A DNA stretch of 64,000 bases from Octopus vulgaris. Its lineage: Eukaryota. The notes beneath the pieces were generated by a model. The model had not been told where the DNA came from, did not search any database, and was given only the letters and a program-made list of their open reading frames with translations. Where the stretch lies: the NCBI GenBank assembly GCA_951406725.2, contig OX597824.1, forward strand, positions 41,354,001-41,418,000, read 5' to 3'. A program made the position numbers and the translations under genes. Of the stretch, positions 1 to 31,816 are shown piece by piece. Position 1 is the stretch's first letter. Each line of letters opens with the position of its first letter.

Positions 1-466
1 TAGAACGTTGTATAAAATATAAACTGGTATCTGGTTACCTGTAATTCTGAGTTCAAATCAAGGTCCAGTTTTCGCTCTTCGATAAGATATGCAAAAGTCA
101 ATAAAAATAGACAATTTCTTGTTATTTAACATGTTTCTTTGAGATGAATGAAGATTGTCCCTTTCAGCCATTGAGAAGCACAATTGTTCTGACCCCATTA
201 AAAAATGTTTTCGAGGCCTCTCTTCATAGCGTCAAAGCAGCGTTGGCATCTGGTGACAAGGTTGTATAAAGAGGTTGAACAAAATAATGGGAATATTTTT
301 TTTTATTTACATATATTTTTCTATTGGCAATGTGACAAATACAAATTTGTTTTGTCTGAACATGTGTTCATTTGTAGAATGTGTGCCTTGTACTTTTATG
401 ATATAGCTCTCTATTTTTCAGTTTTGCATATATATATATGGATCAAAACAGTTTGATTCAAATTCC

Positions 467-512
467 GTGGTACTTAGTTTCGAAGCATAAGATAATGCTT
501 ATCCTCAGCCGA
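467..512 (-). ncRNA. Hammerhead ribozyme-like motif (type I, family B), left arm
   Basis: Minus strand: tcgg CTGAGGA t AAGCAT tatctt ATGCTT c GAAAC taa GTA ccac. Canonical CUGANGA and GAAA cores and a 6-bp stem II; stem I only 2 bp. Confidence 0.65.
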
Positions 513-524
513 TTCAAATTTCTA

Positions 525-572
525 GTGGTTGAAGATAAGCATTATCTTATACTTTGAAACTTTAAGTACCAC
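525..572 (+). ncRNA. Hammerhead ribozyme-like motif (type I, family B), right arm
   Basis: GTGG TTGAAGA t AAGCAT tatctt ATACTT t GAAAC tttaa GTA CCAC. Stem I GTGG/CCAC perfect; C3>U change in core; one mismatch in stem II. Confidence 0.6.
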
Positions 573-785
573 AAAATTTGAATCAAGCTGTTTTGATCCA
601 AACATGCAACTTGCAATAATTATGTTGAGCGCCCTTCTTTCGTTTATCCACTCTCAGGTGTATATATGTATATATATATATATATATATATATATATATA
701 TATATATATATATATATATATATATGTATGTATATATCATATATATCATATATATATATATATATGTATGTATATACATATGTAT

Positions 786-998
786 GTGTGTCTGTATTTG
801 TCCCCCCCCCCAACATCGCTTGACAACCGATGCTGGCGTGTTTACGTCCTCGTAACTTAGCGGTTCGGCAAAAGAGACCGATAGAATATAAGTACTTAGC
901 TTACAAAGAATAAGTCCTGGGGTCGATTTGCTCGACTAAAGGCGGTGCTCCAGCATGGCCGCAGTCAAATGACTGAAACAAGTTAAAGAATAAAAAGA
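786..998 (+). mobile_element. 3' half of tRNA-derived SINE (same family as 31121-31565)
   Basis: Near-identical to 31370-31565 (TTTGTCCCCC...CATCGCTTGACAACCGATG...CAGCATGGCCGCAGTCAAATGACTGAAACAAG); preceded by (TA)n at 661-725. Confidence 0.85.
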
Positions 999-1002
999 AC
1001 GA

Positions 1003-1823
1003 ATACATACATAGATACATACACACATACATGCATACAAATATACATATATATATACACATACATGCATACATACATACATACATGCATGCATACATAC
1101 ATACATACATGCATGCATATATACATACATGCATACAGATATACATATATATACACATACATACATACATACATGCATGCATACATACATACATGCATAC
1201 AAATATACATATATATACACATACATACATACATACATATATACATACATACATACATGCATGCATATATACATGCATACAAATATACATATATATATAC
1301 ACATACATACATACATACATGCATACATACATACATACATGCATACAAATATACATATATATACACATACATACATACATACATACATACATGCATACAT
1401 ACACACATACATGCATACAAATATACATATATATACACATACATACATACATACATACATACATACATGCATACAGGTATACATATATATACACATACAT
1501 ACATACATACATACATGCATGCATACATACATACATACATACATACATGCATACAAATATACATATATATACACATACATACATACATACATGCATGCAT
1601 ACATACATGCATACAAATATACATATATATACACATACATACATACATGCATGCATACATACATGCATACAAATATACATATATATACACATACATACAT
1701 ACATACATAAATGCATGCATACATACATACATGCATACATACATACATGCATACATACGCACATACATGCATACATACATACATACATACATACATACAT
1801 ACATACATACATACATACATACA
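1003..1823. repeat. Compound (ACAT)n microsatellite with higher-order ~60-bp periodicity
   Basis: About ten recurrences of GCATACAAATATACATATATATACAC separated by variable (ATAC)n; source of the spurious MYVC/HTYI ORFs. Confidence 0.95.
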
Positions 1824-1825
1824 TA

Positions 1826-28311: not shown

Positions 28312-29154
28312 TATATATTAATGTTTTCTTTCATGTCGAGTTACATATATAAAAAAGCAGCACTAAAATGAATGATCACTCAATACCCTTGAGTAGAATA
28401 AGCATTTAACTTCCCGTTTGCTGAGCATCAATTCGTTTTTATGATGTAAAAATGAAGTTAAACGAAAACGTGATATTTTGAAATGATTTAATATATGGTT
28501 CAGGTACACATCTTAAATCATCTTAAAATATCACGTTTTAAAATATCATACACACACACACAAGCACACATACACACAAACTCGCGCACGCACACACACA
28601 CGCATATTGAATATTATATATTATTAATATATTAATGTTGCTTTTTATGTCGTTATATATAGAAAAAATATTAAAAATATTAAACTGTAGATTTAATGTC
28701 GAGAGCTGTCTTAAGTTGTTTGCACCAAGATTTATTAAATATTCTATTGATTAATGGGTTTTTTTTTCAGATAATCACCCATGTGTTCAATGTTATAGCA
28801 TTTTCAATCGATCAAAGATAATCGAATGCGTAGCTTGACCTATAGCATATACATATACATATGTTGTTTACGTGTATCTTTGTGATACAGAAACACAGGA
28901 CTATGCTCAATAAACACTTATTGCATAGTGTTGATCATTGCCCGGCCGGTCATGACAGCGGTTAGCGATGTTAACAAGATATTGGGTAAAAAAGTGTAAC
29001 GTGATTTAAGCTGAAGGAAATAGGGCGAAGGTGAGACAAATATGTTGGTGGCCATTGAACGGGAGTATAGCATTTGAAGTTGGCTATATTTGGCCCAAAT
29101 ATTCTTGCTTGCTTGCTTCGTGCTCTTGCTTGATGGGACTGGGATCATCCCTGG

Positions 29155-29550
29155 TTAGCGGTCTCAGAGACGTCATCATGCATAGAGCTGACCAGATCCA
29201 CCAGTGCTCACCATCAATGACAGTTCCATGCCAGCCCCTCAACATCCTTCAAGGTGTCGTCGAGCCTTTGGAGATCTTTCCCAATTATGTCTCACCGTAT
29301 GATACGGGGCCTGCTACGAGGCCGCTTCCAGCCCGTAGTTGTTGTGTTGAACGAGAGTAAAACCCTGGATGTTCTAGAGGAAGACGGAAGATATGACCCC
29401 ATCAGCGCATGCAATGAATAGTTATGAGGTGGGAGCGTGCGGTCTGATGCGTGCGCGCACGCAATTCCTTGCTGGAAACGTGAAGGTATCATCTGATGTT
29501 CTCGATGGTTCTCAGGGCTCTGCTATCGAAGCCATCGATCCTATACCTGC
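29155..29550 (-). mobile_element. 3' end of an RTE-clade LINE, decayed
   Basis: Minus-strand translation TTGWKRPRSRPRII matches the GxRxxGRPxxxW C-terminal motif of RTE ORFs. Confidence 0.6.
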
Positions 29551-30332
29551 TTTTATATTAAAACCGAACAAATCTGGCCTCTCACGTCTACCATACAATC
29601 TCATTTTAAGTTACGAGATAAGGCTTGGTCAATTCATAACTGTGAATAAGTAAGTATTACATTAGAGAGAGTATTCTGAATGGTAATGGGTTAATACATG
29701 TTTATGCGTGGGAAGTAGTATTTCGTAGTCAGTTTCGTGTGGAAAAATTGGTTAAATCAGATTTGAACACAAATGAACTGAAATGCGCTGAACAAAATGT
29801 CTGCCATGTCACCACCTACATATAATAAAAGAAGCATGTCGGATCATTGCTGATTCCTGATGCGAGGAATCGTACTTAAAAACTAAAGTATGTTCTTTCA
29901 AAAATCAAAGCTATATAATAGTATTAGAAAACACATATAACGTGTGTACTATCTGCCCTTCTATCTTCTCTCCTTCTGTCTCTTTCTTATAAGAATGAAA
30001 GATATAATTTAGAACCAAATTTGTGGATTTACATTCATTTTTATAGGTTAGCTATGCATTGTATGTATTTCATTCATGGACGAAATAGCCATGATATACA
30101 TATACACATGCATACATTAATAGATACTGTGTTCATACATATACAGTTACGCAATACATACATGCATATACATACATATATGTATACATACATAAATATG
30201 TATATGTATACACACACACATACATATATATTTAATTATTATAATGAAGGATAAAATCGTTGAAGATTTTATCAGTGGCCAGCATATAATATAGACTTAT
30301 ATTATATGCTGGCCACTTATTAAGGTGAATTC

Positions 30333-31020
30333 ATATATAGAGATTTATGATAGTATAAAATACAATTATAATTAATGGCATAGAAGAGGTCATGCCTATG
30401 CTGAAAATAGATGCTAAATCGTCAAATCACTTAAAATTATCATTTTTATAGTACACACGTGTTGAAATCGAGGGAGTAGGTTCACAGATATTCATAAAAT
30501 AATTAGCCGTGGGTCAATCAATTTTTGGTTTAGTCTAATAACTTTTCCTTATCAGCAAAGCATACTGAGGGAAATAAATGAGATATTTATCCTTTATTAT
30601 TATAATTGAATAATTTCCATTCACTCTGGGAGTCTAATCACTTCTATACTACTCAGATCAAATACACACGCGCTGAGGTAGACTACGAAATTCAAATGCA
30701 GATATATTTGTGGTATTTGTAAGTAATCGTTGCTTTGCGTTTGCTTCCCTGGGAGTATGTATAAATATCTTATTTACTTTCCTCAGTATACCTTGCTGAT
30801 GAGGAAATGTTATTAGACTAATCCAAAAATTGATTGACCCACGGCTGACTATTTTATGAATTTCTGCGAACCTGCTCCCTCGATTTCAACACGTGTGTAC
30901 TATAAAAGTAATAATTTTAAGTGGTTTGACGATTTAGCATCTATTTCCAGCATAGACATAATCTCTTCTATGTCCTTAATTATAATTGTATTTTATACTA
31001 TTATAAATCTCTCTATATAT
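30333..31020. repeat. Long inverted repeat (~255-bp arms, ~170-bp spacer)
   Basis: 30333-30590 is the reverse complement of ~30760-31020, with roughly 24 differences by eye, mostly transitions. Confidence 0.92.
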
Positions 31021-31120
31021 TTATACACACTCATACATACACACACACACACATACACACACAGACACACACACACACACACTCTCTCACACACACACAC
31101 ACACACGCACACATATATAT

Positions 31121-31565
31121 GCGCAGGAGTGGCTGTGTGGTAAGTAGCTTCTTACCAACCACATGGTTCCGGGTTCAGTCCCACTGCGTGGCACCTTTGG
31201 CAAGTGTCTTCAACTATAGCCTCGGGCCGACCAAAGCCTTGTGAGTGGATTTTGTAGACGGAAACTGAAAGAAGCCCGTCGTATATATGTATATATATAT
31301 ATTTATATATATATATATATATATGTGTGTGTGTGTGTGTGTGTGTGTGTGTGTGTGTATGTGTTTGTGTGTCTGTGTTTGTCCCCCGAACATCGCTTAA
31401 CAACCGATGGTGGTGTGTTTACGTCCCCATTACTTAGCGGTTCGGCAAAAGAGACCAATAGAATAAGTACTAGGCTTACAAAGAATAAGTCCTGTGGTCG
31501 ATTTGCTCGACTAAATGCGGTGCTCCAGCATGGCCGCAGTCAAATGGCAGAAACAAGTAAAAGAG
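31121..31565 (+). mobile_element. Full-length tRNA-derived SINE with internal (TA)n(TG)n microsatellite
   Basis: A-box TGGCTGTGTGG, B-box GGTTCAGTCCC, CORE-like TTGGCAAGTGTCTT, internal microsatellite 31282-31375, conserved 3' half; several homologues in the window. Confidence 0.9.
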
Positions 31566-31771
31566 TATGTATATATATATATATATATATGTGTGTGTGT
31601 GTGTGTGTGAGGTATATTTGCCATCCCAATATGGCTAACCACTAAGGGTGGGTGTTACTCTAGCTTGTAGCTCCAGGAGAACATTTCCTCCAGCTGGCTA
31701 TAGGCACATTTTCTGTGACCTATCGGTATTTGCAAAGGGAGGTCATCCTTCTCTCGTCAACCTAAGTAATA

Positions 31772-31816
31772 CGCACGGACTGCAGTTTCTGGGTATTGAC
31801 CCGTCATCAGCGCACG
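31772..31816 (-). ncRNA. Near-canonical minimal type-I hammerhead ribozyme (family C)
   Basis: CGTGCG CTGATGA c GGGT caat ACCC a GAAA CTGCAG TC CGTGCG: intact core, 6-bp stem I (two G-U), 4-bp stem II, palindromic stem III ACTGCAGT, GUC cleavage triplet; lies in a ~210-bp insert (31610-31820) between microsatellites. Confidence 0.85.

Follow-up and report, generated by a model that had tools for sequence, protein, structure and literature searches.

Eight short hammerhead-like motifs lie scattered over 64,000 nucleotides of the Octopus vulgaris genome (assembly GCA_951406725.2, contig OX597824.1, positions 41,354,001 to 41,418,000 of the forward strand; hereafter the window), and they raise the question of which elements left them there and whether those elements use them as ribozymes. 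An initial annotation had assigned them to at least three families of minimal hammerheads (A, B and C), tied to the ends of Penelope-like elements (PLEs). Our analysis indicates that they are very probably minimal hammerheads in the 3' pseudo-long terminal repeats (pLTRs) of 5'-truncated PLEs, from at least three families (two Neptune-type and one of the Hydra clade), which end at (TA)n and which are predicted to cleave themselves likely only as pairs. The idea of several high-copy, microsatellite-linked families of Penelope-like ends was borne out.

Hammerhead-like motifs in the window

All eight motifs are present where they had been reported, six of them on the minus strand, but the claim that the CUGANGA/GAAA/GUH topology is kept throughout holds for two copies only: family B copy 467 (core 471-508, minus strand; CUGANGA) and family C copy 31772 (31778-31810, minus; CUGAUGA). 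Three family A copies on the minus strand, 14287 (14292-14318), 16782 (16787-16813) and 26216 (26221-26247), read CCGACGA, that is, they carry U4C, and the remaining three are broken. Copy 525 of family B (529-568, plus) has U3 with G8 and a mismatch in stem II; copy 3438 (3442-3468, minus), of the GUAG-loop lineage of family A, reads CUGUUGA, has a damaged stem II and has lost one A of GAAA; copy 12451 (12451-12473, plus), of the same lineage, is truncated and has no CUGAN. The eight motifs represent six independent insertions, since the two B copies form one head-to-head insertion and 14287 and 16782 one tandem insertion.

A relaxed descriptor recovered five of the eight, its total for the window being five, whereas 200 dinucleotide shuffles averaged 0.02 matches with a maximum of 1, so that the motif frequency clearly exceeds that of shuffled sequence. 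A strict CUGANGA-stem-GAAA descriptor found no match in the window, because an extra base precedes stem II. The Rfam Hammerhead_1 model, proposed earlier as a check, returned nothing above its cut-off of 34 bits: its best score was 11.3 bits at 31776-31812 (family C), a targeted scan gave no match for 26216 or family B, and no hammerhead exceeded the threshold among the best 150 of 314 whole-window rows, with 3438, 12451, 14287 and 16782 outside the targeted scan. Two weak descriptor matches with one mismatch, at 62664 (minus) and 19563 (plus), are probably due to chance.

Copy number and insertion sites

Family A with A at core position 6 (A6) has 14,434 exact matches in the 2.8-Gb genome, and the pattern without A6 has 18,788, a disjoint set whose listed members come nearly all from the lineage of 3438 and 12451; together these make at least 33,222 exact matches. 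The family C pattern matched 735 times, a count that is too high by roughly a quarter because seven of the 30 loci inspected are either unclear or members of a sister family, the other 23 being C proper. For family B the exact pattern matched the window copy alone, and a DNA search returned 785 candidates, the best 40 of which were scored and showed 78-94% identity; family B is older. Reversed-pattern controls gave 0 matches throughout.

Every copy had been said to adjoin (TA)n or (CA)n. A dinucleotide repeat indeed lies within 116 nt of all eight, but proximity of this kind is common by chance in the window, where 30% of random positions have such a repeat no more than 100 nt away and 38% no more than 150 nt away, so that the genome-wide distance is the better evidence. 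The 3' end of the copies is fixed at a microsatellite: a dinucleotide repeat occurs within 400 nt downstream in 26 of 30 family A loci (21 of them at 94-113 nt), in 25 of 30 GUAG-lineage loci and in 21 of 30 C-pattern loci.

Parent elements

Two window copies of family A lead to an intact element. Copies 14287 and 16782 lie in two tandem units of 2.4-2.5 kb on the minus strand that are 98.6% identical over 2.4 kb. Each unit, the first at 16652..19149 and the second at 14151..16589, comes from a young Neptune-type PLE and holds its 5'-truncated, CA-rich 3' untranslated region (UTR) together with its pLTR; the second ends in (TA)n. Among loci taken from the same genome (numbered with L), L134 and L136 are 97-98.6% identical to the tandem units, and the second unit is 98% identical to L134, L136 and L137. 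Hammerheads occur in L134 and L136 before the open reading frame (ORF) and again after a 3' UTR of about 2.9 kb, also CA-rich, that is, in both pLTRs. The related L135 has an open frame of 1008 aa with DKG, YIDD, a CX4CXXC linker and GIY-YIG motifs; Pfam RVT_1 scored below its cut-off there and Pfam did not call GIY-YIG. A search with the 5' edge of the 16782 unit gave 415 genome candidates, the best 40 of which were scored and were all identical, and the end of a PLE ORF lies just upstream in 23 of 30 loci that share this edge. Copies 14287 and 16782 are 98% identical to the 3' portion of this intact Neptune-type PLE of 1008 aa. Between the units, at 16590..16651, the 62-nt flank that adjoins the insertion's 5' junction (19150-19212) recurs in inverted orientation, as if the reverse transcriptase (RT) had switched onto target DNA.

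The other family A copies are short. Copy 26216 is the 3' end of a UCC-loop subfamily (26113..26330, minus) and ends in (TA)n. The 3438 copy (3346..3500, minus) combines a lineage-wide change at position 6 (A6U) with decay of its own and abuts (TA)n, and the 12451 copy (12451..12570, plus) is a stub truncated inside the hammerhead between (TA)n tracts. For the GUAG lineage we found a related Neptune ORF end upstream in nine of 25 loci, and L292 holds two tandem ORF ends, 61-63% identical to L135, each followed by CUGUUGA. As a side observation, a GAGYG motif lies 17-32 nt downstream of the family A cleavage site in 41 of 51 copies across subfamilies, with a similar motif about 60 nt downstream in family B. 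The GAGYG motif is able to base-pair with stem II on its 3' strand, at a median pair probability of 0.17 (0.39 for stem II itself), and might act either as a switch in folding or as part of a promoter.

The two family B copies form one head-to-head palindrome (439-657), a layout that recurs at other B loci: an inverted, 5'-truncated pLTR copy (439..521, minus) that ends at (TA)n without a tail, and a forward pLTR copy (522..657, plus) with a decayed core and a tail of about 60 nt. Their link to a parent rests on L258, where hammerheads at 1532 (minus) and 2001 (plus) precede Hydra-type ORF remains at 2142-4099 and a further hammerhead stands at 5176 (plus). Upstream searches of 30 B loci found Hydra-type remains in the sense arrangement in five and on the opposite strand in three, and the remains in L214 read RMRWK. 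Early adjacencies of B to Hydra-type sequence in L195-L197 were uninformative and were set aside. Relatives of B flank a decayed Hydra-clade PLE.

Family C is represented by a pLTR piece at 31641..31820 (minus), whose 3' boundary is not fixed, 180 nt having been compared. Relatives about 78-81% identical to it occur in L128, where an inverted hammerhead pair precedes ORF1 and ORF2, and in L130, where ORF1 and a 753-aa ORF2 (Pfam RVT_1) are followed by a hammerhead; C relatives flank a two-ORF Neptune-type PLE. L072 was not counted as a parent because its ORF lies on the strand opposite the C motif. A sister family (L062, L063, L065, L074, L078 and L079) has the stem II and extra A of C, but its palindromic helix III is longer and its flanks differ.

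Constraint, folding and mechanism

Several features of the sequence variation suggest ribozyme-like constraint. G stands at the cleavage position in only 275 of the 14,434 family A matches. Pair 4 of stem I in family A is G-C in 26, C-G in 11, G-U in five and A-U in one of 48 copies (43 of 48 paired), with a G-C/C-G swap between lineages. The TGTTT/AAACA helix proposed for stem I is found in 26216 only, and 14287 and 16782 carry a U-U mismatch. Stem II of family A says nothing on covariation since it was fixed by the search pattern. An extra nucleotide lies between positions 9 and 10.1 in all three families (A, Y and Y in A, B and C, respectively), and the G10.1-C11.1 pair is present in A, and in C if an extra A before GAAA is allowed.

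Stem III had been described as tiny and palindromic or nearly so. This is true of family A, with ACGU, and of family C, where the helix is the palindromic ACUGCAGU, stem II being preceded by an unpaired C and followed by an unpaired A; the helix III segments are self-complementary in 19 of the 23 C loci, including a double change from UCGA to UGCA. The B segments start with U and end with A, but the search pattern demanded both. When one C fragment was cofolded with itself, a double hammerhead at -29.1 kcal/mol was predicted, against -11.6 kcal/mol for the monomer.

We envisage, from the layout of these loci together with the literature and folding, the following cycle. A partially tandem PLE with a hammerhead in each pLTR, an arrangement seen directly in the parent loci, would be transcribed. 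Because helix III is too short to close within one molecule, either two motifs would likely join by base-pairing of their palindromic segments (ACGU or ACUGCAGU) or the PLE protein would aid folding, and the RNA would be cut after GUH/GUA. Nicks in AT-rich DNA would likely be made by the GIY-YIG endonuclease, and the RT would likely begin copying at a fixed point close to the RNA 3' end and in most cases break off early; a tail could be yielded by internal initiation, as suggested by the parts of Cervera and De la Pena 2014, Craig et al. 2021 and the Anolis study (PMC11167929) that we compared. The outcome is visible in the genome as tens of thousands of stubs of 100-250 nt, along with doubles in inverted orientation and partly tandem copies. 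The majority of the copies in the genome are probably passengers without activity.

The A6U core of the GUAG lineage

To follow the change at position 6 we used a pattern with all 11 core positions free, which gave 10,080 matches; 100 listed matches were counted by eye. Position 6 was U in 95, A in one, C in two and G in two. Because U dominates, the A6U of copy 3438 is lineage-wide. Position 7 varied freely (U in 35, C in 31, A in 28 and G in six), and the other nine core positions were canonical in 95-100%. The 30 free-core copies fetched belong to several subfamilies with divergent flanks. Apart from A6U, the core of this lineage appears to vary as in a working hammerhead. It is a serious possibility, which we place a little below even, that this largest lineage (about 18,800 exact copies; represented in the window by 3438 and 12451), carried in ORF-bearing Neptune elements and fixed for CUGUNGA, is a natural hammerhead that has an altered catalytic core and works with the help of a protein, or else one whose shape is preserved for the PLE protein although it no longer cuts. 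Our literature search found no paper on a hammerhead with A6U, the PLE hammerhead variants of Lunse et al. 2017 lying outside the comparison.

Alternative explanations

Several observations weigh against the reading of the motifs as paired self-cleaving ends of PLEs. The largest hammerhead lineage has A6U, and the youngest A element combines U4C with a U-U in stem I. Family B has U-U or A-U in place of G10.1-C11.1, and family C has its extra unpaired A before GAAA. In the cofolds, a C fragment 2 nt shorter loses stem I, the family A double hammerhead reaches -5.7 kcal/mol against -22.5 kcal/mol for a competing duplex, and neither B cofold gives a double hammerhead. The parent links of C and B run through relatives about 78-85% identical, not through the window's own subfamily, and a search of 30 loci, each with 1.5-kb flanks, yielded no parent ORF for the short 26216 subfamily. 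Finally, in the account of the Anolis study used here (PMC11167929), hammerhead mutants of a PLE remained capable of insertion in vitro, and none of the RNA-seq reads terminated at the cleavage site.

Some of these points favour an alternative in which the hammerhead fold in pLTRs, most of all that of family A, is retained because the PLE protein uses it as a signal for binding or folding, with cutting weak or dispensable. The 18,788 exact matches without A6 and the near-absence of A at position 6 speak for it, and of the core forms in the remaining listed A matches U4C is the most frequent. According to the portion of PMC3088659 that treats these variants, U4C and A6C lower activity in vitro, that of A6C being low; the same source counts U4C and U10.1-U11.1 among natural variants and reports that U4C supports viroid infectivity, which counts against this alternative. 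Also opposed to it are the nine other core positions, which stay 95-100% canonical, with N7 alone varying, across subfamilies with divergent flanks, and the rarity of G17 (275 of 14,434). We regard a fold kept without cutting as possible yet rather unlikely; it stays alive because cleavage was dispensable for insertion in vitro in the Anolis system.

It is improbable that the short copies are non-autonomous retrozyme- or short interspersed nuclear element-like elements that circularise via their hammerheads and serve as their own templates. Such elements would account for tens of thousands of short copies, for the many GUAG copies that begin near one point about 70-90 nt upstream and for the missing parent of the 26216 subfamily, and a preprint (10.64898/2026.07.22.740005), in the part considered here, derives animal retrozymes from PLE pLTRs. 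However, the first 100 family A matches contain only two neighbour pairs no more than 1 kb apart and none as close as 500 nt, so that these are not retrozyme arrays, the 5' ends of A copies vary, and parents with an ORF are present for A, for the GUAG lineage and for B and C. The retrozyme-like system proposed by the initial annotation accordingly gives way to mostly solitary pLTR ends of truncated protein-coding PLEs. Chance matches, which the missing Rfam hits and three broken copies might suggest, are already refuted by the five matches against a shuffled mean of 0.02, the empty reversed controls and the placement of the motifs in both pLTRs of PLEs.

Comparison with known systems

By most testable features the motifs are PLE minimal hammerheads, judging from the parts of the published descriptions compared here. 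With those of Cervera and De la Pena 2014 (PMC4209133) they share an absent or tiny palindromic helix III, an extra nucleotide between A9 and stem II, a stem I that is short, covarying families of which a genome has several, copies that mostly stand alone and pairs on opposite strands; the U3-A8 variant described there occurs here in a fourth family. They differ in the U4C or lineage-wide A6U of family A, in the loss of G10.1-C11.1 in B, in the extra A before GAAA in C and in copy number, at least 33,222 against 2,000-9,000 per genome.

The A and C parents share DKG, the RT, a CX2-5CXXC linker as well as a GIY-YIG at the C terminus with the endonuclease-bearing Neptune PLEs of Craig et al. 2021 (PMC8557442), along with partial tandems, an inverted 5' copy and microsatellite targets; the A parent differs in its long CA-rich 3' UTR and the C parent in a separate ORF1, the clade being assigned by motifs and not by a tree. 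Hydra-clade PLEs in the same paper, including Hydra-1_Obim, already listed from an octopus, have in common RW[KR], DKT, a CXCX5C linker, a C-terminal GIY-YIG, (TA)n insertion and hammerheads, and family B departs from them in its non-canonical 10.1-11.1 pair. The short A, B and C motifs were not found in the searched part of the supplement of that paper.

Non-LTR retrozymes (Cervera and De la Pena 2020, PMC7229834) likewise have type-I hammerheads in high-copy animal repeats. As described in the part compared, theirs are short ORF-less tandem repeats, roughly 300 nt long, whose hammerheads are canonical, whereas ours are solitary ends of ORF-bearing elements. The copies do not form short ORF-less tandem repeats with a hammerhead in each, and the pLTR position flanking a PLE ORF is found in L134/L136 (A), in L128/L130 (C relatives) and in L258 (B relatives).

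Among the matches listed, our literature searches gave no relevant match for hammerhead with octopus; none was found for hammerhead with a CCGA uridine turn, and the term 'ribozyme' is absent from the main text of a paper on Octopus vulgaris repeats (PMC13282606).

Other PLEs and features of the window

The RT relic at 3830..4518 (plus), which had been put forward as a candidate of the mobilising class, is frameshifted and does belong to a PLE, of the Hydra clade like the parent of B, with 83% DNA identity to L194 and 69% to L192. Its long relatives have DKT, a CXCX5C linker and a C-terminal endonuclease (RWR/DKT/CNCRNKNKC in L193 and DKT/CNCRKPKLC in L192), motifs that the window relic itself does not span; a Naiad identity was rejected because the relatives lack the N-terminal GIY-YIG and DKA of that clade. 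L192, the closest long relative, carries hammerhead-like motifs with a long stem II on both sides of its ORF (by eye). Since these differ from the window families and since A and C are Neptune-type, the relic is a bystander and not their mobiliser. The Hydra-clade PLEs in L191 (2662-5547), L193 (2614-5478) and L192 (2987-5404) have open frames of 806-962 aa with long Asn-rich inserts and are longer than the described Hydra elements of under 3 kb.

The best genome matches to GIY-YIG come from a young two-ORF Neptune-type PLE with a 781-aa frame, many full-length frames and the fourth hammerhead family (U3-A8), seen in L092 at 779 and 5566 and in many of L035-L060. It was rejected as a parent of A, B or C, its hammerhead family being a different one that is absent from the window.

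The term 'gene desert' is too strong for the window, because a single-exon ORF of 686 aa with C2H2 zinc fingers lies at 59766-61826 (minus; ORF and domain search), which we take to resemble an INSM1/nerfin-type gene. Above their Rfam cut-offs are a diverged 5.8S ribosomal RNA-like piece (10449-10607, plus) and a U6 pseudogene (35331-35432, minus). There are also two inverted repeats, one with 258-nt arms at 91% identity (30333-31018) and one with 193-nt arms at 88% (1807-1999 with 10671-10863), and Tc1/mariner transposase remnants at 47561-47971, 49157-49444 and 52122-52463.

Significance

Since class, layout and target preference have been published (in the parts of Cervera and De la Pena 2014 and Craig et al. 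2021 compared here), our findings add families and not a mechanism. They show that one genome holds 33,000 hammerhead motifs or more, on average one every 85 kb or so, many of them close to genes. The role of PLE hammerheads is called unclear in the relevant part of Craig et al. 2021 (PMC8557442), and an intact young parent together with sister lineages bearing A6, U4C and A6U cores provides a natural series that bears on whether PLEs need ribozyme cutting.

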